A DNA stretch of 64,000 bases from Candidatus Rifleibacteriota bacterium (GCA_012520995.1 JAAYNI010000046.1:42650-106649), one strand, 5' to 3'. Numbered from the stretch's first letter, positions 29,841-60,516 are shown. Notes: generated by a model not told the origin, from the letters alone. Made by a program: numbers and translations.

Positions 29841-30311
29841 GTGAAGAGACAAGTAAACGCTTTTACACTCCTTGAAGTAATGATAGCCGCCTTCATTTTG
29901 GCAGCAACGCTCATCCCCGTTCTTTCTGTCTTTTCTGCAAGCAACAAGCAAACTGAAAGAAGCGCAATAACTTTAGAAGTAGCCGTAACCGCACAAGACT
30001 TGCTGGATGAAATTCGTCGTTCTAATATTTTGCGAAGTTCCTCTTTACCGATGAAAATAGAACTTCCTTCTGATATGTATCCGCAATTCCCAATATCAGA
30101 AAGAATTGCAAAGAAATATCAAGGCAAAGTTGTGATAACAATTTCAAATCCTGCAGGGCATACAGATCTGAGAGGAAAAAAAGAAGAGGACCTAATAGAG
30201 ATCATGGTTAAAGTAGACTGGACAGAAGGAGAAATGACGCCTTCATACACAGCAAGAGCCTATGTGACCCTGCTGGGTCAGCATTTAATAACCACAACGA
30301 GCGTGCCATAA
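29841..30311 (+). CDS. Prepilin-type pseudopilin/minor pilin
   Basis: GTG start with an AAGGAGA ribosome-binding site. N-terminus MKRQVNAFTLLEVMIAAFILAATLIP has the class III signal FTLLEV. Confidence 0.65.
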   Translation: MKRQVNAFTLLEVMIAAFILAATLIPVLSVFSASNKQTERSAITLEVAVTAQDLLDEIRRSNILRSSSLPMKIELPSDMYPQFPISERIAKKYQGKVVITISNPAGHTDLRGKKEEDLIEIMVKVDWTEGEMTPSYTARAYVTLLGQHLITTTSVP

Positions 30312-30949
30312 TGAAATCAACCCGCATTAAATCAGTAAGTTCCAAACAGTCGGCTTACACTCTTATGGAAGCTTTAATTGCAGTAGCCATCGCTTCCATA
30401 ATAAGCCTTACGATATTTGCCGCACTGCGAACCAGTCTTGCGAATGTCGCTTTAGGACAAAAAAAACTTAGAACAACTGAAAAGATACAGGCTATAACTA
30501 AATCGATTTTTTTCGATCTGAAGCGCACAGGCCTCTTAGCTCACGGATTTAACATTTCAGGAGAGACAAGAGGCAAATTCACTCCTCATAATGTCCTATT
30601 GCTCAAGTTCCCCGAAGAACCCTCAGACAATCTCCAAATGATTAACACATCCCCAGGACAAGGCAAAGGCACAACGACAGTCTACCTTCTCATAGACGAA
30701 CCGAATTCTCAATTGTCTTCATTGGTACGTATAAGCAAATCCGGTCCCATTATTCGCAGAATTACCAAGGTTGCAAACGCAATTAAAGACTTCAGGGTCC
30801 ATGCTGATCCTTACAACAAAAACAAAGTAAGAATCACCATGACAGTTTATGATAGCCTAGAACCAACTAGAAGCGAAAAATTAGATTTCAGCGTTCATCT
30901 GGATTCCGACCTTGTGCGTGCAAAACAGTATATTCTCGTAAAAGGATAA
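30311..30949 (+). CDS. Prepilin-type minor pilin-like protein
   Basis: N-terminus ...SAYTLMEALIAVAIASIISLTIFAAL, with a pilin-like hydrophobic helix after a T-L-M-E-A motif. Start codon abuts the upstream stop. Confidence 0.55.
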   Translation: MKSTRIKSVSSKQSAYTLMEALIAVAIASIISLTIFAALRTSLANVALGQKKLRTTEKIQAITKSIFFDLKRTGLLAHGFNISGETRGKFTPHNVLLLKFPEEPSDNLQMINTSPGQGKGTTTVYLLIDEPNSQLSSLVRISKSGPIIRRITKVANAIKDFRVHADPYNKNKVRITMTVYDSLEPTRSEKLDFSVHLDSDLVRAKQYILVKG

Positions 30950-30951
30950 AC

Positions 30952-31479
30952 ATGCAATATTTCAACAAAAACAAAGGCTATATAATGTTTACAGTGATAA
31001 TGTGCATAGTTTGTCTTGCAATATTTGCAGCCGGTTACTTTTATTATTCTGGAAGCATAAACACCAGAGTCTTTTCTGAAGCCCATAAAATCAAGGCTGT
31101 CAATTACGCCAAAGCAGGTTTGGAGAAAGCAAAGCTTGACATATACAACAGCTACTCCATGGGAATATATGATGTCTCCACAGAAAGCGGCAAGCTGATC
31201 AAGAATCGGGCTGGCTCAAACGAATACAAATTCGAGTTTCCTGACGGCGGATACGAAATAATATCTATTAAGGCACAAACTATGATGGTTCCCGAAAAGC
31301 CTGGCAGCTCCAAAATGGTGGAAGCTCCCGTAGCAGATATTGAGCGCACCTCAAAAGGAGAACCATCTGGCACATACGATATATGGATTATAGAAACTCG
31401 AGGTTATACTAAAAGGCCTTCTGCAAAAATAAAGCTGAGAACTTTATTGAAAATTTACAGGGATAAAAACTTTTTTTAA
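30952..31479 (+). CDS. Small membrane-anchored protein in the pilin operon (PilX-like position)
   Basis: Single N-terminal TM (MFTVIMCIVCLAIFAAGYFYY); co-directional and tightly packed with the pilins. Confidence 0.4.
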   Translation: MQYFNKNKGYIMFTVIMCIVCLAIFAAGYFYYSGSINTRVFSEAHKIKAVNYAKAGLEKAKLDIYNSYSMGIYDVSTESGKLIKNRAGSNEYKFEFPDGGYEIISIKAQTMMVPEKPGSSKMVEAPVADIERTSKGEPSGTYDIWIIETRGYTKRPSAKIKLRTLLKIYRDKNFF

Positions 31480-31505
31480 TTAAAAATATCAGGAGATATC
31501 TCACA

Positions 31506-32801
31506 ATGACATGCTGTACATGGCTGAATAAAAAATACAGCCAACTTTGTCTCTGCGTTGCCTTTTTTTTCATGAGCTCCCCTATGATACTCAATGCCCA
31601 AGCCGTACCTTCTGAACCTCCTTCAAACATAGTGCCCCTGGAAAGTGCCATTTTCACTACTCTTAGACCTTTAAGTGACCTAAACGAGGACGGATACACG
31701 GAACTTTTAGCCGGCGGCGTTGACGGCAACCTGAAATTGATTTCCGTAAATCCCAAGGAAACAGGTGAATACCTAGACTTTCCAAAGTGGCCACAATTTT
31801 TGGATGCTCCCTTAACAGGAGGTATTAAAACTATAGGAAAAGGTCACAAAACAGTCATAGTTGCTACCACATCGGGAGAATCGCAATATTTTTTCAACCG
31901 GAATGGCAGAAACATTTGCAATATGCAATTTCAGAAAACTCCTGGTTCTGAATGGCAAGTATATGAAACCGGAGAAGGCTCAGTCAATATGACCATTCCT
32001 GGTAAAGACCATATACATGTAGTCTCAGTATCCGATGGAAACGTTGCCTGTTTTGAACCGATAAAAGCCAAAGAACCTCCTATCGGAGACTCCATACTGA
32101 TACCCGGAGGACTTTTAGGTTACAAAACAAAAAATGGAAGAGTCTACGTAACCGACATGGAGGGAAATCCTCTAAAAGGCTGGCCAAAGACCACAAGTTC
32201 CAGCAACGACAGTTGGGGTTACAATATGGGCTCAGCAGACGTAGCCGGCGATGGCGGCTCGGTAATTTATACCACTACTGCCAGCAACCAATTTATAATG
32301 TGGGATCTTGAAGGCAATGAACTAAAAAAATTCAACATAAGTTCGCCCGCTTTTCCGGCACCCACTTTTGAAGACGTTGACGGTAATGGAATTACCGATG
32401 TAATAATTGCCCAAAAAAGTGGAGAAGTCATGGTTTGCAACTTAGACGGAAAACCTCTAAAAGGCTGGCCTTACAGGGGTTCCGGTTCAATACTTCACCA
32501 GCCCAAATTCATAGACATAGACGGAGACGGCCACAAAGACTTGGTGTTTGTGACCTCCCGACAAGGAGGACAAGGACGTTTGGTAGCTCTGGATCGTAAC
32601 GGCAAAACTCTATCCGGCTACCCTAAAGATCTTGGACAAACCTATAGCAATCCAGTATTTTCAGATATAAACAATGATGGATATATGGAGATTATCTTGG
32701 CCTCCATCAAGAACGAAGAGCCCCATATACATGTTTTCCCCACAAAGGCAAAAAGCAGAATCAGGATGGTAACTCTAGGACATGAGCTCGTGCTTGAATA
32801 A
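31506..32801 (+). CDS. Secreted FG-GAP-repeat beta-propeller protein
   Basis: Signal peptide. Repeated Ca-binding-like loops DLNEDGYTELLAGG, DVDGNGITDVIIA, DIDGDGHKDLVFV, DINNDGYMEIILA and a recurring PLKGWP motif. AGGAGA ribosome-binding site. Confidence 0.6.
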   Translation: MTCCTWLNKKYSQLCLCVAFFFMSSPMILNAQAVPSEPPSNIVPLESAIFTTLRPLSDLNEDGYTELLAGGVDGNLKLISVNPKETGEYLDFPKWPQFLDAPLTGGIKTIGKGHKTVIVATTSGESQYFFNRNGRNICNMQFQKTPGSEWQVYETGEGSVNMTIPGKDHIHVVSVSDGNVACFEPIKAKEPPIGDSILIPGGLLGYKTKNGRVYVTDMEGNPLKGWPKTTSSSNDSWGYNMGSADVAGDGGSVIYTTTASNQFIMWDLEGNELKKFNISSPAFPAPTFEDVDGNGITDVIIAQKSGEVMVCNLDGKPLKGWPYRGSGSILHQPKFIDIDGDGHKDLVFVTSRQGGQGRLVALDRNGKTLSGYPKDLGQTYSNPVFSDINNDGYMEIILASIKNEEPHIHVFPTKAKSRIRMVTLGHELVLE

Positions 32802-34200
32802 AAAACTTTTAACAATCTGTTTTTTTTTCCTGCTGATATGTTCAGTTCTCTTGGCAAGAGTTGAAGAAACCGCATCATTTCTGAAAGCAGGCCAATTGGC
32901 TTTTCTTCGTGGCGATTATAATGCAGCCGAAATAGAATTTTCAAACATACTTTTAATTGATCCTGAAAATTTTGAAGGCCGTATTTGGCTTGCTAAAGTA
33001 TACTTGGCTCAAAAAAATCTCACAGGTGCTTCAAAACTCCTATCTGAAGCCTCAAAACAAGCTCCGGCTCACTTCATGATTGTAAAGCTTCAAGATGAGC
33101 TCAGAGCTGAAGAAACAGATGAAAGCCTTTCCGGTATTGACCCGATGATGGAAGAGCGGCTCAGCCTTTTAAAAAATGACATTCCTGTCCGCAGATACGG
33201 TTTGGTAATACCCGAACAAAACATTCATATTCCAAGAGAAGAAACAAAAGACGTTCAATCACTTTTAGCAATTTTAAACGACACATACGAAGAGACATCT
33301 CCAATTGAATCTATAGACAATGAAGTTCTCCTAGATAAGCCAAGTGACTTTCAGAACCATTTTTCAATAAGCAAAAGAGAAAGCGGCAATCCATTAGAAA
33401 AAGTATTCGCAACTCTTGAGAGCAAAGGTATGAATGCGGCTCTGGATCTCTATGTCGAAATGGCTATAAACGACCCGAAAACGGGCACTTACTCCGACAG
33501 AGGCTTTTTACAAAGAGCCTCAGCTCTCTATCAGCAAAGAATGCGAGCCAACCCCTACGACTTGGAAGCCCAGTATTATTGCGCAGCCGCTAAATATTTT
33601 GACGGGCTCCATGACGATGCAGGAAAAATCATAAAAATGTTGAATCAGAGACCCTACGAGCCCAGAAAAAAAGAAATAGACTACATATCGAACAAGCTGG
33701 AGAGTTATTTTCGAAGCATAGCATCCTACAACAGACAGCAAGAACAAAGCAGAAGCGCGGCTGAAGCAAAAAAAGCATCTGAGGCAAAAGCAGCTGCAAA
33801 ACCAGATGGACAAGAGAAGTTTTGGAAAAAGCTGGAAGAAAAAAGAAGACTTGAAATCAACGAGCAGACAACAAAAGAGTCTCAATTTCTGCACGATGAC
33901 GGCTTTAAGCTTTATAAACAAGGCAGACTGGATGAAGCTATAAAAAAATACCGGCAAGCCTTGGAAATCAGCCCAAATAATCCGGAATTTAACTATCACT
34001 TGGGATTAGCGCTTTCTGACAAAGCCTTATCAGGAGAGTCCGTTTACTTCACACAAGCTCTGGAAGCTTTTAATAGAGCAGCTTTAGCCGATCCTTCTTC
34101 AAAGTATGCAAAAGATGCAAAGAAAATGGTCAATAATATAGAAGAAATGCAAGCCATATTAGAAGATCCTCATGGAGAAAAATACGATTCAGATTTTTAA
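32782..34200 (+). CDS. Secreted TPR-repeat protein
   Basis: Signal peptide MSSCLNKKLLTICFFFLLICSVLLA; TPR-like repeats at both ends. Confidence 0.55.
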   Translation: MSSCLNKKLLTICFFFLLICSVLLARVEETASFLKAGQLAFLRGDYNAAEIEFSNILLIDPENFEGRIWLAKVYLAQKNLTGASKLLSEASKQAPAHFMIVKLQDELRAEETDESLSGIDPMMEERLSLLKNDIPVRRYGLVIPEQNIHIPREETKDVQSLLAILNDTYEETSPIESIDNEVLLDKPSDFQNHFSISKRESGNPLEKVFATLESKGMNAALDLYVEMAINDPKTGTYSDRGFLQRASALYQQRMRANPYDLEAQYYCAAAKYFDGLHDDAGKIIKMLNQRPYEPRKKEIDYISNKLESYFRSIASYNRQQEQSRSAAEAKKASEAKAAAKPDGQEKFWKKLEEKRRLEINEQTTKESQFLHDDGFKLYKQGRLDEAIKKYRQALEISPNNPEFNYHLGLALSDKALSGESVYFTQALEAFNRAALADPSSKYAKDAKKMVNNIEEMQAILEDPHGEKYDSDF

Positions 34201-41515: not shown

Positions 41516-42634
41516 ATGACAAACCGCAAACCTTCTTCATCCATACCTGGCTGGATTCATCTGCTATTCATTTTAGCGGTTTTTTTTATTCTCCGACAAG
41601 TTTCAACCACCAGCCGTGAAAAACCTCCTAGAAAAGAAACAGCTTATGTCACAATTGACACTTCCGCTTTGCTAAAAGAAACCACCCAGCTGATTACTCC
41701 AGTCAAAAGTTCATCTGTCATACCGACACCTTTCAGCAACTTGATAACCACTGCTCCTGTCAACGACATTTTAATAGAGCCCGACGGAAGCGTCTGGGCA
41801 GCGACAGAAGAAGGTGCAGCAACATATATAAACGGCCATATAACCGAGTATACTTCAGCAGACGGCACCTTCCCTTTTGAACAGGCAACCTCACTCTTGC
41901 TTTCAAAAGATACTCTGTTTGTCTCAGGATTTTACGGGGTAGCTAAAAGAACTAAAAACAAATTTATCACATCAAATATAGACATATCTCTCATTTGGGA
42001 TTCTCTGCAAGATGGGGCTTCCACTTGGTTTTCCACACAAACTGGTCTTTATTTAGTAACAGAAAAAGACGAAAACCCAGTAAAAATAGACAAAGACTCC
42101 ACAAATAACGGGCTGCGATATAATTGGTGCAGAAACCTTCTCAGAACCGGTTCAAAACTTTTTATTATACAAGACTCTTGCCTCAGTATTTGGGAACTTT
42201 CTCTACCCGCTTCCAACCCTAACTCTTGGAAAAGAATCGAATATTCAGACTTAAACATCAACTCCCCTGTCAACTCTGTCGGCTTTGACGGAACGCATCT
42301 ATGGCTAGCAACAAACAGCGGTCTCTTCCGCATTTTACCTCCATTGAATGAGTTCGGCATGCCAATAAAACATTCCGCTGAACTATTTACCACACTTAAC
42401 AACCTGCCCTCCAACAAAATAAATACTGTTCTTGGACACAAAGGCAATCTCTGGGTAGGCACAGAGCAAGGCTTGGCAGTTGTAACCCAAGGCGGCTCTA
42501 TCAAACAAATAGTGCCAGACAAACCCTATAGACCTTTGCCCATCAGAGCGCTAAGCTTTTATGGCGAGATTCTTTGGATAGGCACGGACAGCGGTTTGCA
42601 GTTTATTAACACAGCTATGTTTCAACTCACATGA
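41516..42634 (+). CDS. Membrane-anchored beta-propeller protein with two-component-regulator-propeller-like repeats
   Basis: Recurring LWLATNSGLFRI, LWVGTEQGLAVV, ILWIGTDSGLQFI blades after an N-terminal TM helix. Confidence 0.55.
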   Translation: MTNRKPSSSIPGWIHLLFILAVFFILRQVSTTSREKPPRKETAYVTIDTSALLKETTQLITPVKSSSVIPTPFSNLITTAPVNDILIEPDGSVWAATEEGAATYINGHITEYTSADGTFPFEQATSLLLSKDTLFVSGFYGVAKRTKNKFITSNIDISLIWDSLQDGASTWFSTQTGLYLVTEKDENPVKIDKDSTNNGLRYNWCRNLLRTGSKLFIIQDSCLSIWELSLPASNPNSWKRIEYSDLNINSPVNSVGFDGTHLWLATNSGLFRILPPLNEFGMPIKHSAELFTTLNNLPSNKINTVLGHKGNLWVGTEQGLAVVTQGGSIKQIVPDKPYRPLPIRALSFYGEILWIGTDSGLQFINTAMFQLT

Positions 42635-44868
42635 CAAAAACTCCTGAAATTCAAATAAACTCTCTAAGAGAACAAATAAGACACCACGAATATCTATATT
42701 ATGTAAAATCGGAACCTGTCATATCTGATCAGGACTTCGATTACATGATGAAAGAACTCGAAAAGCTTGAAAGTGAAAATCCGAATCTAATCACTCCAGA
42801 CTCCCCGACTCAAAGAGTCGGAGAAGACAGCACTTCATTTGAGAAAGAAACACACAGAGTTCCAATGCTCAGCATAGACAACTCCTACAACGAGGCTGAA
42901 ATAGCAAACTGGCTGGAAAGATGTGAGAAAACTTTAGGTAAAAACCCTTTTCCGGTTGTAGCCGAATTAAAAATAGATGGTGTCTCAGGCTCTTTCAAAT
43001 ATCAAGAAGGATTACTGCAAACAGCTGTAACAAGAGGAGACGGTCAAACTGGCGATATTATAACAGAAAATGCCAGAACAATACGCAACCTGCCTCTCAA
43101 AATTGCTTCCGACTTTGACATGGATATAAGAGGCGAAATTTATACGCCTTTATCCACCTTCAATCAATGCAATGAAGAAATTATACAAGAAGCGGACAAA
43201 AAACTTGAAGAAAAAGAAATGGAGCTTTCTCAGATCGAAAAACAATTGCAAAGTTCTCTAACTCTTAGCGGTGCTCCTGATCCGCAACTTCAAGAAAAGC
43301 TTGAAAAATATCAAGAAGCATTTGAAAAGCTTAGTCACCAAAAGCCAAAACTTTTCAAAAACAGCAGAAACTTCACCTCAGGCACAATTAAATCATTAAA
43401 GCCAACGACAGTGAGCAAGCGAGGCCTGAGAGTCATGGTATATGGCATAGCTCAAGCTTTTGAACTTGGTTTTGAAACTCACACTCAGGTGATGAACTTC
43501 CTCCACAAAGAGGGCTTCAACATAAATGTGCGATGGAAAACCTGCTCAACATTTGAAGAAATTACGGCTTTTATAAACAACATAAAAAATGAAAAGGCTG
43601 ATTTCGACTTCGACATAGACGGCATTGTCTTGAAAATAGACAATCTGGCCGCTCAACAAGAACTTGGAACCACAGCTAAATCGCCGAGATGGGCATTAGC
43701 CTACAAATATCCTCAGGAAGCTGTAAAAACAAAAATTATAAACGTCAGATGGCAACCTGGCAGAACCAGACTGACCCCCGTAGCAGATCTCGAGCCTGTT
43801 CAAATTGCTGGTACAACTGTTTCAAAAGCCACTCTTCATAATGCGGATTTTATCAAAGAAAAAGACATAAGGCTCGGTGACGTTGTTTTCCTTGAAAAAG
43901 CCGGCTATATAATTCCGCAAATAATAGAACCAATCGTAGAAGAACGCGACGGAACCGAAAAAATAATTGAGCTGCCTACTATTTGCCCACTTTGTTCTAT
44001 GCCTACTGAAATAACTTCTCAACTTAGAAAAGTCTCTTCTTCAGACAAAAATGAAGATGCAGATCCAGACGAAGAAAATTCAGAGCAAGATTCAGATGAA
44101 AACATACTTCCAAGCATGCGTTCATTCACTCTAGTAACCTGCTCAAACCCTGAATGTTTCGGTTTTCTGCTGAACAGAACTCTAAACTTTGTTAAATGTG
44201 CTGAAATAGAGCATTTCGGCATAAAAAGAGTTGAAGGCGCAATAGAAAGTGGATTAATCAACAAGCTTGAAGACATTTTTACTCTGAATGAAACAGATTT
44301 AGCTGCCGTTGACTCTATCAAAGAAAAATCCGCTCAAAAAATAATTGCCAGCATAGCAGAAGCAGCAAAACAGCCTCTTGCCAATATAATTTGTGCCCTT
44401 GGCATACCCAATGTAGGCAAAGTTAGAAGTGCTGAGCTCGCCGATTTGGCAAATAATTCATTAGAAAACTTTTTAAGTTTTACTGAGAAAGATCTTCTTG
44501 AGGAAGAAAAAGAAGAAGCTGTAATAGGAAACAGTGTTCTAGAATTTATCAGAACTCCTTGCAACAAACCCCTGTTTGAGGCAATAGCCAAGTGGTGGAA
44601 AGGCCCGGACAAACAACAAAGTACAGAAGAAAGCAAACTCAAAGGTTTGGAATTTGTTTTTACAGGCTCTGCCACAATGCCTCGCAACAAACTATCAGAA
44701 CTAGCTGTTGCAAACGGCGCAAAAGTGAAATCTTCAACCACCAAACAAACAGACTATTTGGTAATAGGCTCCAATGAACCGCTGGATTATAACTCTTCTA
44801 AAAAGCAAAAAGCCGAAAAGTTCGGAGTGAAAATAATCAATGAATTTGATTTTTTAGCAATGCTCTAA
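42631..44868 (+). CDS. ligA: NAD-dependent DNA ligase
   Basis: Adenylation motif KIDGVSGSF, OB fold, Zn-finger CPLC...CSNPEC, HhH repeats and a C-terminal BRCT domain. At 745 aa it is long because of two insertions. Confidence 0.9.
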   Translation: MTKTPEIQINSLREQIRHHEYLYYVKSEPVISDQDFDYMMKELEKLESENPNLITPDSPTQRVGEDSTSFEKETHRVPMLSIDNSYNEAEIANWLERCEKTLGKNPFPVVAELKIDGVSGSFKYQEGLLQTAVTRGDGQTGDIITENARTIRNLPLKIASDFDMDIRGEIYTPLSTFNQCNEEIIQEADKKLEEKEMELSQIEKQLQSSLTLSGAPDPQLQEKLEKYQEAFEKLSHQKPKLFKNSRNFTSGTIKSLKPTTVSKRGLRVMVYGIAQAFELGFETHTQVMNFLHKEGFNINVRWKTCSTFEEITAFINNIKNEKADFDFDIDGIVLKIDNLAAQQELGTTAKSPRWALAYKYPQEAVKTKIINVRWQPGRTRLTPVADLEPVQIAGTTVSKATLHNADFIKEKDIRLGDVVFLEKAGYIIPQIIEPIVEERDGTEKIIELPTICPLCSMPTEITSQLRKVSSSDKNEDADPDEENSEQDSDENILPSMRSFTLVTCSNPECFGFLLNRTLNFVKCAEIEHFGIKRVEGAIESGLINKLEDIFTLNETDLAAVDSIKEKSAQKIIASIAEAAKQPLANIICALGIPNVGKVRSAELADLANNSLENFLSFTEKDLLEEEKEEAVIGNSVLEFIRTPCNKPLFEAIAKWWKGPDKQQSTEESKLKGLEFVFTGSATMPRNKLSELAVANGAKVKSSTTKQTDYLVIGSNEPLDYNSSKKQKAEKFGVKIINEFDFLAML

Positions 44869-45028: not shown

Positions 45029-45724
45029 ATGAAAAAACTTCTTAGCTTAACAAATCTGACCGCGTTGTTTGTGTCAGCTTGTTTGTTTGTGTCCGTTTTC
45101 GCCATACCTTCCATGCTTTCAGCACAGGAACCCGAGTATTTTTCTCCCGCTTTATTGCAAAACGCCTATCAGTATTATGCTGAACAACGCTTCGAAGAGG
45201 CTCACAACGAAATACAAAACCTTTTCAACAGAATACCTCCCGCAGGATACAATTACGAAAACGACAACCCTGACGAAGATGAACTAATCTCTGCAGAAGA
45301 ACTCAGGCTCTTTGACATATCAGTTTGCATTTCAGCAGCCTATGACAGCTTCTTCAATATGACGCCTGAAGCTCTTTGGATAACCAGAGCTGTTGAAGAA
45401 ACAGCCAAGCTCCAAGATGAAGCAACAACCGAAGAAATCATGGCTCTCCTTGACACAGCTAATGCGGTTTCCATGATTTGCAGCATGTATCAAAATGAAG
45501 ACTATGGCGATGTCCTAGACGCTATTCTTGAAACAGAAAAAGAAGCCGCACCCACGGATCACGAGTTTTTCATGTTTGAAATTAAAGCTCTAATCTCATG
45601 CGGTGAAAAACTGCTCAACCGAGACCTGATCAATCAAGCTCATTCTCTCTACAAGTTTGCCGTTGATGAAATGAAGCTTGAAGATTATAAAATGGCTCGT
45701 CTCAAAAAGATTCTCGGATATTGA
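45029..45724 (+). CDS. Secreted hypothetical protein
   Basis: Signal peptide MKKLLSLTNLTALFVSACLFVSVFAIPSMLSA. Confidence 0.45.
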   Translation: MKKLLSLTNLTALFVSACLFVSVFAIPSMLSAQEPEYFSPALLQNAYQYYAEQRFEEAHNEIQNLFNRIPPAGYNYENDNPDEDELISAEELRLFDISVCISAAYDSFFNMTPEALWITRAVEETAKLQDEATTEEIMALLDTANAVSMICSMYQNEDYGDVLDAILETEKEAAPTDHEFFMFEIKALISCGEKLLNRDLINQAHSLYKFAVDEMKLEDYKMARLKKILGY

Positions 45725-46491
45725 GCCTCAGATATAATCCTCAATCTTACGAGAAACAGCTCTCAAAATCAGGACTTCTCTCTGACAATAGTGCAGAGAC
45801 CCTTTCCGAAGACCTCAACATCAGAGTACAACAGCTGCTCGGAAAACCTGGGTTCAAGATTCCTAACCCTATAAAAAACTTCACAAATCTTGAACCTCAG
45901 GTTTTTAAAGAGTACGGCAGCGATGCCGTAAGACTCGCGTTGCTTACAGACCATGATAATCCCGAGAGCCTCTATGACTCCGCATATAACAGGCTCAGCC
46001 ATTGGTTTTCTCTTCTCAATATCGAGCAAAAAGCAGCTGAACAAGAGACAGATCTTGAAACAAGCTTCTTGCTCACCGCCCTCATGAGACTTGAAGAACA
46101 AATACTAGAAAGAAACAAACCCCACGCTGTGATTTCAATGGCTGCGAACTTCTTTAACCGACATAAAACCTTGAGCCTCTCTTACAGAACCAGAAAACTT
46201 CTGGGAACCTTGCTTTATCCTTTTGTGCCTGTTTTCGCAATTTCAGAGCTTCTTGATTCTTCCGCTGTGCCTGTTATTAACGAAATATATGATTTTTTTC
46301 CTGAATATCTCTTCACAGAATATAAAATAGAGAAAAGCTCTTGGCAAAAAATAGCTATAAAAAACGACCCGGCCGCTGGTAAAAGCTTTGAAAAAAGTTT
46401 ACTGGACTTGCCAAGACTTCAACCCTTGAGGAAAAATGGCGAGATATTATTTAAAACTACCCAAAGAGGTATCTTGATATGCCTCGCCTGA
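45721..46491 (+). CDS. Hypothetical protein
   Basis: ORF overlaps its neighbours by 4 nt and 13 nt. No recognisable motif. Confidence 0.4.
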   Translation: MSLRYNPQSYEKQLSKSGLLSDNSAETLSEDLNIRVQQLLGKPGFKIPNPIKNFTNLEPQVFKEYGSDAVRLALLTDHDNPESLYDSAYNRLSHWFSLLNIEQKAAEQETDLETSFLLTALMRLEEQILERNKPHAVISMAANFFNRHKTLSLSYRTRKLLGTLLYPFVPVFAISELLDSSAVPVINEIYDFFPEYLFTEYKIEKSSWQKIAIKNDPAAGKSFEKSLLDLPRLQPLRKNGEILFKTTQRGILICLA

Positions 46492-46916
46492 ATTCACAAA
46501 ACTGCAAGCATTTGCGTATTCTTATTTCCTTAGTATTAGCCTTAGGAGCTTTACATCTTTTTATGAAGCCTCCAGTTACACAAGCAAAAGATATTTTCAA
46601 AGAGAGTCTGCAAAAGCTTGATGTAACAATATACAAACAAGGAAAAAAAATTGCGGTACAATCTGTAACTCAGTCTTACCAAACAGCCTCGCCCGAACTA
46701 ATCACTTTTAATGACGCAACCTATTCGGAATTAACAGCCTGTAAATATATTTCTCCTGCAATAGCCGATCAGATCATAAAAGAACGAAAGAAACGTCCTT
46801 TTGATGATTGGGATGATTTTTCAAAAAGAATCAAAGGCATGGGAAAAGAAAAAATCTCATACTATAAAACAATAGGTCTAAAAATAAACAGAGAGCAAAA
46901 ACTTGAGACCCCCTAA
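46479..46916 (+). CDS. comEA: ComEA-like helix-hairpin-helix DNA-binding protein
   Basis: Signal/TM segment plus C-terminal ...ITFNDATYSELTACKYISPAIADQIIKERKKRPFDDWDDFSKRIKGMGKEKI, which resembles the ComEA HhH domain. It directly precedes comEC. Confidence 0.5.
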   Translation: MPRLNSQNCKHLRILISLVLALGALHLFMKPPVTQAKDIFKESLQKLDVTIYKQGKKIAVQSVTQSYQTASPELITFNDATYSELTACKYISPAIADQIIKERKKRPFDDWDDFSKRIKGMGKEKISYYKTIGLKINREQKLETP

Positions 46917-49077
46917 GAATGTTGTCAAAACCCTGAAACTCGACACTGTGACTCTCTTCACAGCTCTTTTTATTTCAGGCCTCCTTGTATCTTCAATTTT
47001 CCCTACTGAGTATGCCCTCCTCTGGCTTGCAGCTTCAATTCTTTGCTTTGCGGCATCTTTCAAAGCAAAGAATAAAAAAGCTTTAATATCTTTGCTTGCT
47101 GCAGCTGCCATTTTAGCCTCCATGTTTTATGCTGCAGTCAAATTTACTCCAAGCTTAGCCACAAAAGATCTTCAAACCCTTGAGGGAACAAAAGGGGAAA
47201 TCACAGGCATATTTTCAGGTTCCATAAAAAAGCTGAAGGACGGCTCATGCTCATTTCTTTTACGTGAATCCTATTACAGAACAGGTGAAAGGCTCTTAAG
47301 TCTTCCTATGCCAATAAGATGTAAAGCTCCAGCATCTGCCTGCCACATAGTTTCAGACAGTAAAGTCACCTTAACAGGCTATATGGAGGCATTGCCAAAG
47401 AGCAACCGAGTCCGTTTTGAAGCTGAAAATTGCAAGCTGGGAGAAAAAATTATAAAGTCCCATGTTTTCGCCTATTTTGATACACTTAGAAACAAAATAA
47501 TCACAAAGCTTCAGAGCATTTTAAAACCCGAACATGCTTCTTTCATATCTGCCATAATATTTGGCGAAACTTCATTTTTGGAAAACAACGAACTCTATCG
47601 CAAAACGGGAATCACTCATTTAATGGCTGTCTCTGGTCAACATTTAATGATCTTGGCTTTATTTTTGACTGCGATTCTCTACAAAACAGGAGTTCCCCCT
47701 CTTTCCAGAATCATATTCGTATCTGTATGCCTCTTGTTTTATGCGTTATTAACGGCAGGTTCACCATCGGTTTGGAGAGCCTTGCTCATGTATGTTTTCG
47801 TAGCCTTGACAGCCTATTTGGATGCGGAACACGTGCCAACCAGAGCAATTTCAATAGCCGCCCTGCTTATTTTGCTTTATAACCCTGCAAATCTGTACAG
47901 CCCTGCCTTTGTGCTCAGCTTCATAGCAGTGTTGTCTATAATATTTTTAAGAAAGCCTCTTGAAAAACTATTTTCCAAGCTCCGCCTGCCCCAATCAGTC
48001 AACCGATACTTGGCTGCGAGTACTGCCGCAAACATAGGCACTTTACCAGCTTCAGCCTGTTTATTTGGCTCGCTGCCCATTTCAGGTCTCATTGTAAACC
48101 CGCTTATTCTCTGGATATTTGCATATATATTCCCAATGTCTTTTACAATAGCCATTCTAGCTCTTATATCGCCAGAATTCGCCTTAAAATTCGTTCCCTT
48201 TCTCTCACTTGTCTTAGATGGAGTGACAATATTTTTGGAGTTTTTTGAAAAAAACTTGGGTCTATATTTTGAGTTCAACAAAATCTCTCCCTTCATAGCC
48301 TCCTTGCTGTATGCGATATTATTTGCCGCTGCAGCTTATTTCAACAGAAAAGAAGCAGAAACAGCAAAAGAAACTGCCAACTCTCTTGAAACAATCCGAA
48401 AAAAACGTTCTCAGCGACAAAGACAAAATCGTATTGAACAAGAGACTCAAAGTGAAAAAGAAGAACCAAAAGCTATAAAAGTCCCTCCTAAAAGGAAAGC
48501 CTTGGAAAACAGAAATTTATTGCGCGAAATAGATAATAGACTGATGCAACTTCCAAGACTTCCTGTTAAAGGCTCAGAATTGAAAATACATCCTAAGCTT
48601 GATCCAAAGCTCCTTCAAATAAACGCACAAAACCTTTACCATCGTGTCATGGAAGCTGACTCAAAACTATACATGGAAAGTCCTGACAGACTTTTAGAAT
48701 CTTGCACATCTCTTTTAGGAATAGTTTCCATGGAACTTCTTTCAAGAGTTTCGAGACTTTCCTCCAAGCCCAATTTTTCTCCATCTGATATAAAAATTAA
48801 GTTTCGCGTGGAACACAGAGAATTAGCTATGGCAGCAATTACTGACAGCATATTGGCTCCAGCCTTCATAATAGAAGTTCCTGACGAAAAATTTAAAATA
48901 ATGCTCTCAGAACTCCAAGGATTGTTCAATAAAGCAAGCGACCTTCTTGAAGGCCTTCTCTCGCCAACAGATTTATCAAAACTCCAAAAAGATTATGAAC
49001 TGCTGCGCAGCGAGCTTTTTTCTTGGTGCAGCGACTTTATAACTCTAGATCTGAATCAAAAACACAAAAAACCTTAA
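46903..49077 (+). CDS. comEC: ComEC/Rec2-family DNA-uptake channel protein lacking the metallo-beta-lactamase domain
   Basis: Competence-domain signature TGITHLMAVSGQHLMILALFL and a multi-TM core. The C-terminal ~240 aa are charged and helical, with no HxHxDH motif. The only start codon I see is the TTG at 46903, which is uncertain. Confidence 0.7.
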   Translation: MRPPKNVVKTLKLDTVTLFTALFISGLLVSSIFPTEYALLWLAASILCFAASFKAKNKKALISLLAAAAILASMFYAAVKFTPSLATKDLQTLEGTKGEITGIFSGSIKKLKDGSCSFLLRESYYRTGERLLSLPMPIRCKAPASACHIVSDSKVTLTGYMEALPKSNRVRFEAENCKLGEKIIKSHVFAYFDTLRNKIITKLQSILKPEHASFISAIIFGETSFLENNELYRKTGITHLMAVSGQHLMILALFLTAILYKTGVPPLSRIIFVSVCLLFYALLTAGSPSVWRALLMYVFVALTAYLDAEHVPTRAISIAALLILLYNPANLYSPAFVLSFIAVLSIIFLRKPLEKLFSKLRLPQSVNRYLAASTAANIGTLPASACLFGSLPISGLIVNPLILWIFAYIFPMSFTIAILALISPEFALKFVPFLSLVLDGVTIFLEFFEKNLGLYFEFNKISPFIASLLYAILFAAAAYFNRKEAETAKETANSLETIRKKRSQRQRQNRIEQETQSEKEEPKAIKVPPKRKALENRNLLREIDNRLMQLPRLPVKGSELKIHPKLDPKLLQINAQNLYHRVMEADSKLYMESPDRLLESCTSLLGIVSMELLSRVSRLSSKPNFSPSDIKIKFRVEHRELAMAAITDSILAPAFIIEVPDEKFKIMLSELQGLFNKASDLLEGLLSPTDLSKLQKDYELLRSELFSWCSDFITLDLNQKHKKP

Positions 49078-49430: not shown

Positions 49431-49889
49431 ATGATATCTCGTATAAAAAATGCCTATACTCTTCCAGAGCTTCTGATTACTGTTTTGCTGCTGGCAATAC
49501 TGCTATCCTTGGGCATTGTTTTTTCCTCAATAATGGCAAAAGGGCAAAAAAACAAGAGTTATGCAGTCGCTCTAGCTTTTGCTCAGCAAGCCATAGAGTT
49601 GGCAAGAGGCGCTCCCTTTGAAATCTTAAGTTCATCTGATGCTGGTGAAGCCAGTGTTGAATATGATCTGAATAACAAATCCAGCGACAATGATTTGCTT
49701 ATTCCTACTTTAGAAAACGGTGAAGCTGTTTATACCAGAACAGTGAAAATAAGAGACATAAAAACAAAAGATGACCCTGACAGTAACGCTGGCTTGAAAC
49801 ATATCAGCGTAAAAGTTGAATGGATCTCCCCTGAAAATAACAAGCCTGATACTCTTGAAATTAACTCGCTGATAGCCAATATCAACTAA
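49431..49889 (+). CDS. Prepilin-type pseudopilin/minor pilin
   Basis: N-terminus MISRIKNAYTLPELLITVLLLAILLSLGIV. Confidence 0.65.
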   Translation: MISRIKNAYTLPELLITVLLLAILLSLGIVFSSIMAKGQKNKSYAVALAFAQQAIELARGAPFEILSSSDAGEASVEYDLNNKSSDNDLLIPTLENGEAVYTRTVKIRDIKTKDDPDSNAGLKHISVKVEWISPENNKPDTLEINSLIANIN

Positions 49890-49890
49890 T

Positions 49891-50640
49891 ATGTACAAAA
49901 GTTTCAACAAAAACCTATCGGAAAAAAGAGCCTTCACTCTAACAGAGATGTTATTGGCCTTAGCTCTCACCGCAATGGTTTTAGCAGCCGCTTACAAAGT
50001 TTTTATTGAACAACAAAAACTGGTGAAATTTTCGGTTGAAACCGTTCATGCAAATGAATCTTTCAGAAAAGTGACCTTCTTTATGGGAGAAGACATAAAG
50101 AAAGCCACCCGCATAGTCAGACCTACGCCAGTTCCATTGGCCTCCGCTTCCGAGCTGATAACAAAAGTCGGCACTATTATGACCGTACAGACTTCCGAGA
50201 TAGATCCAAGAATCAAATTTGACAGTTCTCTTGGCACGCAGATTGCCAAGAGAACTCACATTGACTACGAGCTGGAACTTATGCCAAACTTCAATGAAGA
50301 TTCCGAAGAAGTGCCCGTTTACAGACTAATACGAAATGCCGTTCTCGACGAGGAAGACGGAACCCATTCAGGACAAAGACAAGTGATAGCGGAAAACATA
50401 CAAGATCTTATAATCTACAGAACTGTTCGCGAGCCATTCAAAATTCATTCACTCTCAGAACCTTCAGATCGCATGATTGAGCCTAGAAGTCTAAGCGAAA
50501 CAGGAACAGGCAATAATATAATACACGTAAAAATGGCTATCGAGCGTGACAGATATAAAAAAGAAAAGGGCTCGGTTTACTCGGTTACTATGGAAACCTC
50601 CTTTTACAAACGCGGAAAAGAGATATTCCTGAACCCATGA
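49891..50640 (+). CDS. Prepilin-type minor pilin (PilW/GspJ-like)
   Basis: N-terminus ...KRAFTLTEMLLALALTAMVLAAAYKVF. Confidence 0.6.
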   Translation: MYKSFNKNLSEKRAFTLTEMLLALALTAMVLAAAYKVFIEQQKLVKFSVETVHANESFRKVTFFMGEDIKKATRIVRPTPVPLASASELITKVGTIMTVQTSEIDPRIKFDSSLGTQIAKRTHIDYELELMPNFNEDSEEVPVYRLIRNAVLDEEDGTHSGQRQVIAENIQDLIIYRTVREPFKIHSLSEPSDRMIEPRSLSETGTGNNIIHVKMAIERDRYKKEKGSVYSVTMETSFYKRGKEIFLNP

Positions 50641-52886
50641 AAAATTTGCTGAATTCAAAAAGAGGATACGGAATTATCATTGTCATTCTTTTCATGACAG
50701 TGATGTTTGTATTGTTCGCCGTTTATTTTAAGATGCAAAGCGCTCATTCCTTTTTATATTCCAAGCATGTCAGACGCTCAGTCGCTTCAAACCTTGCGGA
50801 AGGCGTTTTAAACTGCATTATTGCCGAACTGGATGCTAACAGAACATTCGCCACTCACTGGAACTACGACGCAAAAGACACATACACTTTCAAAAGCCCT
50901 GTAAAAAGCCGTGAAACATCCTTGGGGCCTATACCAAACTTTAAAATTGGAGGAGTAAAAAACGGAATTTACTATGGAAGCAGCGACTATGGCACTTTTA
51001 AAGCAAAGTTCGCCCCTTGCTTCGGAGGCTTCGAAAACCCAAAAACCAAAACTCTTTCTGAAAGCAGCATGTACACAAAAGCCGAGATAGCAGTTAAAAC
51101 TGAGGCTGGAAAAACCTCAAAAGATGAGCCTGTCTGCATCAAACTTTCAGCTATTCTCGAAAGACGATTCCCTTCGGCAGAACATGCTCTATATGACGGA
51201 GAAGTATTAGACATAGGCGCTTTGGGTCCATATAACAGCAGCCCCAACGAAATTCGCAGAGCAAGACTTTACGGACATCACTCCATTTTCTTCACTTCAA
51301 AAGGCGCAGGCGATCATGGAACAGAGCTTTTCGAAATTGAAAAAATCGAAACTCCAGGAATGATAAGAGTTACATCAGATACAGATGTCAAATTTTCTGA
51401 CAACACCTCTACTGTGCTGTGCCCTGAAAACGACTCTTTGAACATAACCGCCTTCAACTCTTTTGAAGGCTATCTGATAGACGGCACACATGGAGCTCAC
51501 TCTATAAAACTGAATCGCATTCCTAAAGAGAGATTGCTGAATTACGTGCAAACATATAAGAAAAGCTCTGGAGTTTACATAGACAGTTCGACTTTGCCAG
51601 AATCTGAATATAGAAATCCTTATGATCCTCAAACAAAGTATTACGATCTTGACTTCGGCGAATACAGATTAACAAGCGAGGGCGAAAAACTCGGAAGCGA
51701 CGATCCAAAATGTATAAAAGAAAAAAACGGAGAAAAAATTGTTGTTTATTCAAAAGTTCCCTTAAGAATATGGGGCTCTCCCGACAAAAGCATAACCATC
51801 TACAGCGAAAAAGATATTGTTATAGCCGGTGATTACAACCAAAAGCATTCGACAAGACAAGTATATAAGGACAACCGATATTTAGACTATGCTACAAGAA
51901 TTTACAACGGGAAATACAACCATAAAGTAGGCTCTCTGATAATGACCGAAGGAAGAATAATCATAGACTATTCTGATCCTTCTCTATTTGCAAAAAACGA
52001 AATAAAGCCATATTTTCTTTGGAAACTTGCTGAAAGCATGAATCCCTATTCCCAGAAAATAGCCGGCGAAATCAAAACCGCCCTAGCTCCTCCAGATCCC
52101 TCTGAGAGAACAGCTATTTTCGGAGTTGAAGAAAACATAGACGCTACAGGCAAACTTATACCCAGACTTGGCACCATAGCGTTTCTCTACAACTTTCCTG
52201 AAGTTGATGAAGGCGGCAGCTATAATGCAAACATGGAAGACCTCATAGCATTTTTCACTCCAGGAACTCCAAAATCCATATTCCCTATAAAAAATACACA
52301 GGGTCGCGAAGAGCTTATAGAAATAATTAAGGATGCTTGCAGAACAAACGGCGATTTGACGCTAGCAGAGCAAGATGAAATATTCAACTTTGCTTGGCAA
52401 AAAGCTCTAGAAGACCGTAAAGAAGCTCCTGACGAAAAATGTGCAATAATGGAGATAATTCCCCATCTCTTTAAGGATGCCGCCAAAGACCACAGGGACG
52501 GTCTATTTATACCGGAAATGACAATAAACTCTTTCCTGATCAGTTCAGAAAAACGTTCCTCAATCTGGAGACAAGGCAATAATTCCAACAAGGCCATGGA
52601 TGAAATAGGCAACGTCGGAGATAAGAAATATATTAAACCGCCAGGATTTATAATACTTAGAATTTACGGCGGATATGCTCGTATAGGACGAAAAGAACCT
52701 TCATATTTTATTTCAGGAGAACATACCACAAAAACAGGAGTTCTCAGACGCATAGTCTGGGACAATACTAACCTGACAAATCAAGACTATCGCCCATTAG
52801 AGCAGCCTGTTACCCACAACGTGCTGACAATAAGCGAAACTTTAATAACAGAAAAAGAATATGAAGAGTTTAGCGGCAAAGAATAA
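50637..52886 (+). CDS. Large pilus-associated protein (PilX/PilY1-like position), N-terminally membrane-anchored
   Basis: 749 aa. N-terminal TM GIIIVILFMTVMFVLFAVYF; overlaps the upstream pilin stop. No recognisable catalytic motif. Confidence 0.45.
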   Translation: MKNLLNSKRGYGIIIVILFMTVMFVLFAVYFKMQSAHSFLYSKHVRRSVASNLAEGVLNCIIAELDANRTFATHWNYDAKDTYTFKSPVKSRETSLGPIPNFKIGGVKNGIYYGSSDYGTFKAKFAPCFGGFENPKTKTLSESSMYTKAEIAVKTEAGKTSKDEPVCIKLSAILERRFPSAEHALYDGEVLDIGALGPYNSSPNEIRRARLYGHHSIFFTSKGAGDHGTELFEIEKIETPGMIRVTSDTDVKFSDNTSTVLCPENDSLNITAFNSFEGYLIDGTHGAHSIKLNRIPKERLLNYVQTYKKSSGVYIDSSTLPESEYRNPYDPQTKYYDLDFGEYRLTSEGEKLGSDDPKCIKEKNGEKIVVYSKVPLRIWGSPDKSITIYSEKDIVIAGDYNQKHSTRQVYKDNRYLDYATRIYNGKYNHKVGSLIMTEGRIIIDYSDPSLFAKNEIKPYFLWKLAESMNPYSQKIAGEIKTALAPPDPSERTAIFGVEENIDATGKLIPRLGTIAFLYNFPEVDEGGSYNANMEDLIAFFTPGTPKSIFPIKNTQGREELIEIIKDACRTNGDLTLAEQDEIFNFAWQKALEDRKEAPDEKCAIMEIIPHLFKDAAKDHRDGLFIPEMTINSFLISSEKRSSIWRQGNNSNKAMDEIGNVGDKKYIKPPGFIILRIYGGYARIGRKEPSYFISGEHTTKTGVLRRIVWDNTNLTNQDYRPLEQPVTHNVLTISETLITEKEYEEFSGKE

Positions 52887-58533: not shown

Positions 58534-60516
58534 TTAGTATGTATTTAAATGAACTTTTGAAGGATCATATTTCTCTTTGGGTTTTTCGCCGCCTAGAGGA
58601 TAACCAATGGGAATCACGCATAGAGGAACAACATTCTCAGGCAGATTCAAGATCTTTTGCAAGTTAGCAGTGCGTTCATCTGAAGGATAAACTGAATTCC
58701 AGACAGCTCCGAGTGAATAACTCTCAGCCGTAAGCAAGATATTCTGAGCTGCTATAGCACAGTCCAGCATCCAGAAAGGAAGAGTATTTCCTTCTTCGGC
58801 TATTTTCAAGTCTCCGCAGACTACTATGGCTCCGCCTGCCGTATTCATAGTTATAGGTCTTATAATACCTTCAAGAGAGTGCAAATGCGAATGTTCTATA
58901 ATAACAAAACGCCAAGGCTTTACATTCATAGCAGTAGGAGCCGCCGATCCTGCTTTTACCAATGCGTAAAGCACATCAGTAGAGACAGGCAGGCCTTTAA
59001 ACTCTCTAACGCTCTTTCTGGCAAAAATATTTTTAGTAACTTCGTTTGATAGGGTTATTTTTTCAGTAACAGTTTGTGATTGATTCAAAATCGGCTGATT
59101 CAATGGCTGACTAGGTTCAATCGTCTTTGCAGCGCCTTTAGTCTCAATTAGAGGCATTGTTTGTTGCACCCCGGTTTCGTAATCTTTAGGCAAATATAAA
59201 ATCACAACGACAATCGCTATGACAAAAATAATGTTGAAAATATCAGAAACACTCATTCGTTTCTCTCCAGAATCCCCTTCCTGTTTTTTATATCTGCACT
59301 TCTCTAGAGCCTCGCCCAATGGACAAATATAATTGCACCAAGGCCGTGGCACAAACAAAGCAAGCAAGAGCACCACAAGTACTATTACCTTGACCGATCG
59401 AGCTGTAGTTCCTATATAAAATATGGAAAATGGCTCAACTTCACTTAAGTTTAACCTAAATCCTAATAAAAAGTAACATAATAGTAATATAAAAATCGAA
59501 ATACGCAAGTGTTTAAAGTATTTTAAGTATTTATGTTTAATTTTGTATTCTTTTGATACACATTTGTTAGATAATTCTTGCAAGGCTCCAAAAGGGCAAT
59601 ACCAAACACAATAGAAGTTTCTATTGAAAACAAGAGGAATAAAAAAAGCACAGAAGGCTAAGATTATCAAAAAAAGATCTTTCTTTAAGCTTATGCCATT
59701 TACAAGTGCAGAATAAAGCATATCTGCCGACAAAAGACTTGGAAATATAACACCTGGTATAAGCACAGCTAAAAACAGCCAAAACTTACGATATTTAGCC
59801 AAAGAGCCCACATTGAAACAAGCTGCAAGGGCTAAAAGCAAAAATATGGAAAGCGCCGAGTATTTGCGACGGTTTTGTTTGCTTTGCTGTATTTCTTTTG
59901 CAACAATATTTTCATAATTTGAAATTGTCCTATTCAGACTCTGTATCATACAAGAGCTGCTTCTTGTAGCCCTTGTTATTGTGTCAGGAGCAAAAGTAGC
60001 CGCTTCTTTTGTATGTTTGCCTCTATAGGCCTTTAAAAGGCCAGCGTCTTCTATTCTTTTCATAAAGCTGGGAGTTTCTGAGTTTTTATGAACAAGAATA
60101 TCCAAAATCATGTTGTCCATATCCAGAATCACCGACATGGGAATATTAGAGGAAAATCCTATTAGATCTTGGCAAAGAGGCATAGTCTGCAAAACTCTGC
60201 CGATCTGATTGCCATTGGCATCCAAGATTGCCGCTTGAGCCTTGCCTTTTTCTTGTTCTATTATTTCGGCTAAGTTCAGTTTTGCAATTTGCTTTATATC
60301 ATTTATCTTGGGCAATTCAGGTATATAAGGTTTGACTATTGCCTTTTCTTTGAAGTCATGACCGAAAAAGCGTTTATCCTGATAAGAAATTATAGCCGCA
60401 AATAAAATAAATATTAATATAATGGGTAATTTAGCTTTGGTTTGTTCAATAAATTTATTCTTTGTCTTCACTGAGTTTTCTCCAAGATTTTCAAGGTTTT
60501 TCTTGATTAATTTCAT
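58534..60516 (-). CDS. Tripartite membrane redox protein: FMN-bind-like periplasmic domain + NapH/NosR-like 2x(CX3CP) polyferredoxin membrane domain + C-terminal nitroreductase domain
   Basis: N-terminal TM, then GFSSNIPMSVILDMDNMILDILVHKNSETPSFMKRI (FMN_bind-like). TM region with CVWYCPFGALQE and CNYICPLGEALE. C-terminal FARKSVREFKGLPV...APTAMNVKPWRFVIIE...LDCAIAAQNILLTAESYSLGAVW (nitroreductase fold). Confidence 0.6.
   Translation of the reverse strand: MKLIKKNLENLGENSVKTKNKFIEQTKAKLPIILIFILFAAIISYQDKRFFGHDFKEKAIVKPYIPELPKINDIKQIAKLNLAEIIEQEKGKAQAAILDANGNQIGRVLQTMPLCQDLIGFSSNIPMSVILDMDNMILDILVHKNSETPSFMKRIEDAGLLKAYRGKHTKEAATFAPDTITRATRSSSCMIQSLNRTISNYENIVAKEIQQSKQNRRKYSALSIFLLLALAACFNVGSLAKYRKFWLFLAVLIPGVIFPSLLSADMLYSALVNGISLKKDLFLIILAFCAFFIPLVFNRNFYCVWYCPFGALQELSNKCVSKEYKIKHKYLKYFKHLRISIFILLLCYFLLGFRLNLSEVEPFSIFYIGTTARSVKVIVLVVLLLALFVPRPWCNYICPLGEALEKCRYKKQEGDSGEKRMSVSDIFNIIFVIAIVVVILYLPKDYETGVQQTMPLIETKGAAKTIEPSQPLNQPILNQSQTVTEKITLSNEVTKNIFARKSVREFKGLPVSTDVLYALVKAGSAAPTAMNVKPWRFVIIEHSHLHSLEGIIRPITMNTAGGAIVVCGDLKIAEEGNTLPFWMLDCAIAAQNILLTAESYSLGAVWNSVYPSDERTANLQKILNLPENVVPLCVIPIGYPLGGEKPKEKYDPSKVHLNTY

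Follow-up and report, generated by a model that had tools for sequence, protein, structure and literature searches.

A ComEC-family protein of a Candidatus Rifleibacteriota bacterium lacks the nuclease domain and carries a conserved, predicted cytoplasmic all-alpha domain

Background

When a ComEC DNA-uptake protein lacks its nuclease domain and ends in another C-terminal module instead, what is that module, and on which side of the membrane does it lie? This question is raised by a comEA-like/comEC gene pair at positions 46479 to 49077 of a 64,000-nucleotide stretch of DNA (hereafter, the window) from a Candidatus Rifleibacteriota bacterium (GCA_012520995.1 JAAYNI010000046.1:42650-106649). 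An initial annotation of the window had described a ComEC with an intact Competence channel, without the metallo-beta-lactamase (MBL) nuclease domain and with a different C-terminal region, and had implied that this region takes over the processing of DNA strands. Here we describe the architecture of this ComEC and of its relatives, in which a conserved orphan domain is fused behind the channel and is predicted to lie in the cytoplasm. All coordinates are positions in the whole window, and residue numbers are those of the window protein.

The topology of a canonical ComEC is available from the cryo-electron microscopy (cryo-EM) structure of the Neomoorella carbonis protein, which has three transmembrane (TM) helices, a periplasmic oligonucleotide/oligosaccharide-binding (OB) fold, and TM4-TM10 with non-spanning (NS) helices, and in which TM10 and TM11 are joined by a short helix in the cytoplasm and TM11 leads on to a periplasmic nuclease (PMC13539106). 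On the cytoplasmic side, Firmicutes depend on a functionally essential contact between ComEC and the cytoplasmic protein ComFC that is made through a Firmicute-specific "hook", and how the channel is coupled in other phyla is open (PMC12663950). Outside Firmicutes, little is understood of how ComEC hands single-stranded DNA (ssDNA) over to proteins in the cytoplasm (PMC12455585, PMC12663950).

Identification of a ComEC-family channel and its ComEA-like partner

The comEC gene (46903..49077, + strand) encodes 724 amino acids (aa), in which TM1-3, an OB fold, the Competence channel and a tail predicted to be cytoplasmic follow one another. The Competence domain (PF03772) was found at residues 219-482 (47557..48348, + strand) with an E-value of 1.2e-44 and 153 bits against a cut-off of 23, and it covered model positions 2-269 of 270; with nearly the whole model matched, the channel is intact, as the initial annotation had proposed. 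This region contains NS helices, TM4-TM9, NS6/NS7 and TM10, and includes the motif TGITHLMAVSGQHLMIL (residues 235-251). The protein exceeded the cut-off of TIGR00360 (ComEC_N-term; 71.3 bits, cut-off 36.5) and did not reach that of TIGR00361 (ComEC_Rec2 equivalog; 83.4 bits, cut-off 190, model positions 109-367 of 663), as would be expected if the C-terminal third of this ComEC differs. The Competence domain was detected in all 28 full-length members of the family, and the family profile aligned with residues 208-496 of a solved ComEC (30bt_A) at an E-value of 9e-46.

Upstream of the channel, three hydrophobic segments correspond to TM1-3 (46945..47142, + strand; residues 15-80, with model helices at 15-30, 35-54 and 58-80) and precede a periplasmic OB fold (DUF4131; 47191..47439, + strand; residues 97-179), which appears as beta strands forming a barrel in the AlphaFold2 (AF2) model. 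DUF4131 stayed below its cut-off in the window protein (E=0.031, 14.4 bits vs 31.6) and was detected in 19 of the 28 family members (best E=6e-8), and a Foldseek search with the full-length model matched the OB folds of PriB and SSB with a probability of 1.00; the model thus places an OB fold after the three TM helices of the window protein. The full-length model had a mean predicted local distance difference test score (pLDDT) of 83.5 and a predicted template modelling score (pTM) of 0.62, and its order of elements (TM1-3, OB, NS1-4, TM4-9, strand, NS6, NS7, strand, TM10) is that of the cryo-EM description. The ComEC cryo-EM entries were not among the Foldseek matches, in which the OB fold alone was matched, so that the assignment of the ComEC fold rests on the sequence-profile match. 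With the Competence domain, the OB fold and the TM layout all present, the window protein belongs to the ComEC family, and a role in ssDNA import is predicted from this architecture.

The gene starts at a TTG, as the initial annotation had it. This is the first in-frame start, it has an AGAGAG 7 nt upstream, and the resulting N-terminus is collinear with those of the homologs; such a start is plausible and of no special significance.

The preceding gene (comEA-like, 46479..46916, + strand) encodes 145 aa from an ATG and overlaps comEC by 14 nt. Its product matched HHH_3 (PF12836) in Pfam at residues 75-126 above the cut-off (30.2 bits vs 27, E=4.8e-7) and missed the NCBIfam cut-off for TIGR01259 comE (27.4 bits vs 152, E=2.5e-6). 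A hydrophobic stretch, LRILISLVLALGALHLFM, was seen by eye in the translation at residues 12-29 and is predicted to be an N-terminal membrane anchor that leaves the helix-hairpin-helix (HhH) domain outside the cytoplasm. The protein is a short, divergent ComEA-like protein without an SLBB or oligomerisation domain. The two genes are likewise adjacent in 16 loci from genomes and 8 from metagenomes, and the HHH_3 and Competence matches together confirm the proposed comEA-like/comEC pair. In Candidatus Rifleibacterium amylolyticum (L004 4283..6312), comEA and comEC are separated by two inserted genes, of 333 aa and 323 aa; the tight overlap of the two genes was seen in all other loci.

Absence of the MBL nuclease domain

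No Pfam match to Lactamase_B, Lactamase_B_2 or Lactamase_B_3 was obtained in the window ComEC at E<=1, and these families were found in none of the 28 family members at E<=0.1 and in none of 25 isolated tails at E<=10. Likewise, the H.H.D. pattern was absent from the window ComEC and from five full-length homologs. The nuclease is therefore missing by sequence, by motif and by predicted fold, and a degenerate but alignable Lactamase_B domain in the C-terminus, which the initial annotation had named beforehand as the result that would overturn its view, was looked for with domain hidden Markov models (HMMs) and not found. The nuclease domain has not degenerated in this protein; it is absent altogether.

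The initial annotation had also implied that such an absence is special, and this did not hold. A survey of 4,935 Competence-domain proteins found Lactamase_B in 52% (i.e., about 48% lack it) and inferred repeated gains and losses (Pimentel & Zhang 2018, PMC6299819), and 20 of the 51 ComECs from known transformable strains have no Lactamase_B (PMC6299819). Helicobacter pylori is transformable with a ComEC that has no nuclease domain, and in Streptococcus pneumoniae EndA is used in its place (PMC12455585). Such a loss of the domain is ordinary, already well documented and not new.

Proteins without a Lactamase_B match are not all alike. Ten long ComECs from other lineages (P0009, P0024, P0036, P0043, P0027, P0029, P0050, P0068, P0073, and P0033) had only DUF4131 and Competence in Pfam, which left 170-400 C-terminal residues unexplained; a TM11-like segment was present in all ten, often followed by a VxxxDxGxG-like strand that resembles the first MBL strand. 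The tails of these ten proteins are probably degenerate, periplasmic MBL domains, and they are unrelated to the tails studied here, with the HMM built from the latter scoring them at <=0.1 bit. As a result, Pfam-based surveys would overcount true losses of Lactamase_B, and a "ComEC without Lactamase_B" may be one of at least three kinds: proteins that end at TM10, proteins with TM11 and a probable degenerate MBL, and TM11-less proteins with a cytoplasmic domain.

Membrane topology after TM10

The side of the membrane on which the tail lies depends on what follows TM10. By profile alignment, the last hydrophobic helix of the window ComEC (about residues 460-482) corresponds to residues 474-496 of the solved ComEC, i.e., TM10; the nuclease-domain construct of the solved protein starts at residue 532. 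In six canonical ComECs, 35-41 residues separate the end of the Competence domain from the start of Lactamase_B, and in all six this gap consists of a short K/R-rich stretch followed by a hydrophobic 17-mer (Kyte-Doolittle hydropathy 2.0-3.0), which is TM11. No hydrophobic segment of this kind was found after TM10 in the 28 family members, in which the maximum 19-mer hydropathy of the tails was 0.9-1.8. One segment of the window ComEC (641-660) reaches 1.76; it forms a helix buried inside the soluble domain and is not hydrophobic in relatives.

In place of TM11, the window protein has a post-TM10 segment (48349..48507, + strand; residues 483-535) that comprises the continuation of the TM10 helix to about residue 516, including part of the motif RKKRSQRQRQNRIEQETQSEKEE (residues 501-523), and then a basic, disordered linker. 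In the AF2 model, the last TM helix is one helix from residue 463 to 516 that runs about 35 residues beyond the membrane, residues 513-530 are of low confidence (pLDDT below 50), and only helices follow thereafter. The linker is about 50 aa long in the window protein and 42-120 aa across the family, poorly conserved in sequence and basic (median isoelectric point (pI) 9.7), which fits the positive-inside rule. Similarly, short ComECs (420-520 aa) end 6-14 residues past the TM10 equivalent with K/R-rich C-termini, and from sequence and model the window family looks like this short form ending at TM10 with a cytoplasmic extension added.

We predict that the tail is cytoplasmic, on the basis of homology to the solved topology, hydropathy, the positive-inside rule and modelling, and we regard the architecture and topology described here as very probably correct. 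With no TM11, the chain would stay in the cytoplasm and the tail could not positionally replace a periplasmic nuclease. The implied part of the module in processing the strands is thus unsupported, as the module is predicted to be on the side of the membrane opposite to that on which the non-transported strand is degraded.

A conserved all-alpha domain is fused to the channel

The C-terminal region had been described as a charged, helical region of about 240 aa. That a different, conserved module is present was upheld, and that the region forms one module was not, as it consists of a helix, a linker and a folded domain of about 185 aa at approximately residues 536-722 (48508..49068, + strand). 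Structure prediction of this region, for which the initial annotation had called, returned a confident answer: modelled alone from 25 sequences with AF2, the domain is all-alpha with a pLDDT of 92.9 and a pTM of 0.90, contains no beta strand and ends in a long helical hairpin. The domain is an orphan, with no Pfam match, no sequence match in the PDB with either a 6- or a 25-sequence profile, and nothing significant in a Foldseek search of the PDB (best E-value 0.24, TM-score 0.28).

Despite this lack of known relatives, the domain is clearly conserved. Five database proteins aligned over 97% of the window ComEC, tail included, at 33-35% identity, and among tail sequences that are 18-32% identical, the residues L571, Q576, R596, R702, E611, D544, R639, and W708 are invariant or nearly so. 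The best-conserved part of the domain is its N-terminal half, where D544, L571, Q576, R596 and E611 lie. In contrast to these residues, the charge of the domain varies: family members differ in its pI, from 4.6 to 10.0, with a median net charge of -1, and it is strongly acidic in the gut clade. Such variation speaks against general, charge-based binding of DNA. Taken together with the fact that no catalytic residues are conserved, it points rather to a role in protein interaction.

The domain has a narrow distribution. A search of 1.84 billion representative proteins with the tail profile gave 34 hits, in which the full-length ones were proteins of 700-800 aa with the domain at the C-terminus and the remainder were short fragments; the homolog search with the 6-sequence tail profile yielded fragments only. 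In GTDB species genomes, the tail was found in 16 loci, nearly all labelled Candidatus Riflebacteria, Rifleibacterium or Ozemobacteraceae, and in total 31 loci were collected (18 from genomes and a further 13 from metagenomes). The ComEC channel directly precedes the tail in every locus with enough upstream DNA, namely 17 genome and 11 metagenome loci, and the tail was not found in viral contigs. The domain is lineage-specific and occurs only on ComEC.

Three of the loci (L015, L016, and L017) carry the labels Erysipelotrichia or Candidatus Avigastranaerophilus (Melainabacteria), yet they show full synteny with metagenome-assembled genomes (MAGs) labelled Riflebacteria, and their LigA proteins are 63-80% identical to those of these MAGs and 97% identical to that of locus L001. 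The taxonomic labels of these three loci are probably wrong. The LigA of the window is 50-53% identical to the LigA of all those relatives, and this low identity points to a deep-branching relative of Candidatus Riflebacteria as the source of the window.

Possible roles of the tail domain

We hypothesize that the pair works as follows. A membrane-anchored ComEA, with its HhH domain outside, would hold the incoming double-stranded DNA, and the periplasmic OB fold and channel of ComEC would pass one strand inward. The other strand would be degraded by an enzyme other than ComEC, as in H. pylori, since the ComEC here has no nuclease and another enzyme must remove the non-transported strand. At the cytoplasmic exit, the TM10 helix would project about 35 residues and the basic tether would keep the 185-aa domain near; the linker itself may contact the emerging ssDNA. 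Proteins that receive the ssDNA would be recruited or positioned there by the tethered domain, which would thus be a docking or hand-off module; of the roles considered here this is the likeliest, with ComFC/ComF, DprA, SSB, RecA, a PriA-like motor, or the product of orfY, a neighbouring gene of the same operon, as possible partners. The orfY protein, which is apparently cytoplasmic and co-conserved, is a candidate partner of the tail. We give this explanation as a whole (a ComEA/ComEC pair, a TM11-less ComEC and a cytoplasmic docking domain) a probability of about 0.5; the docking or hand-off role taken by itself is a tentative proposal, somewhat more likely to fail than to hold. On this account, ComEC lost, or never had, the periplasmic nuclease and TM11. 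A bolder version, in which the fused domain gives ComEC a built-in receiver at its exit, one that captures the incoming strand or recruits recombination-mediator machinery, possibly with orfY, appears unlikely to us at present.

Several observations weigh against the docking explanation. The cytoplasmic location on which it builds rests on alignment, hydropathy and the AF2 model. The tail of the window protein differs from the consensus of its relatives at three conserved, polar positions, namely 601 (C for Q/H), 658 (E for R) and 698 (Y for H), encoded by the codons at 48703..48705, 48874..48876 and 48994..48996, and from these differences in sequence it may have diverged in function from the copies in gut and digester Riflebacteria. 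Also, a cluster of pilin-like genes downstream of comEC is not syntenic in relatives, in which the DUF218 gene found there follows comEC instead.

The alternatives differ mainly in the side of the membrane on which they place the tail and in what they require of its sequence. The two that look back to the nuclease fare worst. If the C-terminal module replaced the nuclease and carried out or directed a non-canonical processing of the non-transported strand at the outer face of the membrane, its linear position, which is that of the nuclease domain, and the true absence of the nuclease would be accounted for; TM11, however, is absent in the 28 family members while it is present in six of six canonical ComECs and in ten of ten other long ones without a Lactamase_B match, the linker after TM10 is basic, and the fold is all-alpha with no metal-binding motif, all of which make this reading highly improbable. 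That the tail is itself an MBL degenerated beyond detection by Pfam might be suggested by the apparent remnants (TM11, then a VxxxDxGxG-like strand) in other ComECs without a Lactamase_B match, and yet a confident model (pLDDT 92.9) without any beta strand does not agree with the beta sandwich of the MBL fold, and the tail has no TM11, no HxHxDH, no Lactamase_B match at E<=10 and a score of <=0.1 bit against the other tails; we consider this to have next to no chance of being correct.

On the cytoplasmic side, a motif of the family invites comparison with HEPN domains. EPERLLQA[H/Q], at the N-terminal end of the long central helix, is similar to the Rx4-6H motif of HEPN proteins; the tail could accordingly be a nuclease that attacks incoming nucleic acid in the cytoplasm, or an inactive domain that binds nucleic acid as in Roquin. 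The arginine of this motif (R596) is kept in 27 of 28 sequences, whereas the histidine is not conserved: at position 601, 13 sequences have Q, 10 have H and 2 have Y, while C, S and V occur once each, the cysteine being that of the window protein. The HEPN domains of the RnlA/LsoA toxins and of Roquin show no sequence-level relationship to the tail, the Foldseek search was negative, and their context is wholly different; from the sequence, a canonical HEPN nuclease is unlikely, and the HEPN-like reading in general seems to us quite improbable. The tail might instead bind the emerging ssDNA and act as a tethered ratchet or guide that biases movement inward, partly replacing a ComFA-like motor. 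The basic linker that tethers it at the channel exit (median pI 9.7), the conserved arginines R596, R639, R702 and, in 24 of 28 sequences, at position 658, and the confinement of ComFA to Firmicutes (PMC12663950) are consistent with this idea, but the folded domain has no conserved net charge (pI 4.6-10.0, median -1) and the linker no conserved sequence, and no OB, HhH, KH or other known DNA-binding fold was found in the tail, which leaves a ratchet improbable. A module for self-association, gating or localisation, for example a hairpin dimer or a plug that closes the channel until competence is induced and has no part in hand-off, would make use of the long terminal hairpin of the model; conservation, however, peaks in the N-terminal half of the domain and not in the hairpin, and we consider this improbable as well.

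Comparison with known uptake systems

Up to TM10, the window ComEC has the same order of TM helices, OB fold and channel as canonical ComEC/Rec2 (Bacillus subtilis; N. carbonis, PDB 30bt, PMC13539106), and it shares the pairing with comEA. It differs from these proteins after TM10, where TM11 and the nuclease are missing and a cytoplasmic helix, a basic linker and the orphan all-alpha domain are found. Its closest kin in architecture are the short ComECs with DUF4131 and Competence, or with Competence only (e.g., of H. pylori and of candidate phyla such as Falkowbacteria, P0046; PMC6299819), which likewise have neither nuclease nor TM11 and have their C-terminus on the cytoplasmic side; these proteins stop 6-14 residues past TM10, whereas in the window family about 240 further residues follow, among them those of the conserved folded domain. 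The long ComECs of other lineages without a Lactamase_B match are like the window ComEC in Pfam content and unlike it in that they keep a TM11-like segment.

With the Firmicute ComEC-ComFC-ComFA system (PMC12663950), the window protein shares the concept of a module at the cytoplasmic exit, and the likeness is a functional analogy only. The Firmicute partners are separate proteins, of which ComFC is docked by the hook and ComFA is an ATPase, while the module here is covalently fused; unlike these partners, the tail has no ATPase or phosphoribosyltransferase-like signature. Our search of the open-access literature turned up neither a ComEC that ends in a conserved cytoplasmic domain nor any paper that ties Riflebacteria to ComEC or competence. 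What is noteworthy here is the cytoplasmic placement of the C-terminal module, as predicted, and its strict fusion to ComEC, with the missing nuclease being routine.

A ComEC with its own tethered cytoplasmic domain would be a natural fusion that points to what sits at the channel exit, and the tail is a concrete construct for partner-hunting or structural work. If the built-in receiver were real, it would represent an unrecognised coupling of the channel to cytoplasmic processing in a phylum that does not have the Firmicute solution of ComFA and a ComFC hook. The impact is limited by the uncultured state of the lineage, by a function that is so far a proposal, and by the well-documented nature of nuclease loss.

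The conserved gene block and other genes in the window

The comEA-like and comEC genes belong to a conserved operon-like block, orfX-orfY-comEA-comEC, downstream of ligA. The first gene of the block, orfX (45029..45724, + strand), encodes 231 aa with an N-terminal hydrophobic signal or anchor; it had no match in Pfam and weak TPR-like matches to BamD/PilW (E-values of 0.005-0.03). The second, orfY (45721..46491, + strand), encodes 256 aa and shares 4 nt with orfX and 13 nt with comEA; both orfX and orfY are translationally coupled to comEA-comEC. The orfY protein has no TM segment, shows 30 invariant columns across 10 sequences, is conserved together with comEA-comEC and had no match in Pfam, NCBIfam or PDB searches. 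A GADALR-like motif led us to consider a domain derived from class-I aminoacyl-tRNA synthetases; this was rejected, with a LeuRS match in the window copy only (E=0.13) and none in other members. In 16 of 18 genome loci, a homolog of orfX immediately precedes orfY-comEA-comEC, the gene order is kept in every related locus that has upstream DNA, and the order ligA ... orfX-orfY-comEA-comEC is kept in genome loci.

Two pilin operons nearby had been taken as part of the same picture, and this stood in part. Pilin-like genes do occur in two places. The first cluster (29841..34200) has two N_methyl genes at 29841..30949 and, behind them, genes for an FG-GAP repeat protein and a TPR protein. The other (49431..52886, + strand) begins with two pilin-like genes (49431..49889 and 49891..50640), in which N_methyl (PF07963) scored 17.7 and 25.6 bits against a cut-off of 21.2, and continues with a 749-aa protein (50637..52886) that has a single N-terminal TM segment and no recognisable domain. 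Membership of this downstream cluster in one system with comEC is unsupported, and we treat the cluster as genomic context.

Two further genes of the window have unusual products. Its LigA (42631..44868) has 745 aa, compared with about 675 aa in 14 Riflebacteria relatives, and contains lineage-specific insertions at residues 192-241 (50 aa, charged and helical-looking), 465-478 and 485-499 (acidic, in the zinc-finger region). On the opposite strand, the gene at 58534..60516 (-) encodes a 660-aa protein in which FMN_bind, Fer4_5 (4Fe-4S) and Nitroreductase domains are combined in an unusual fusion.

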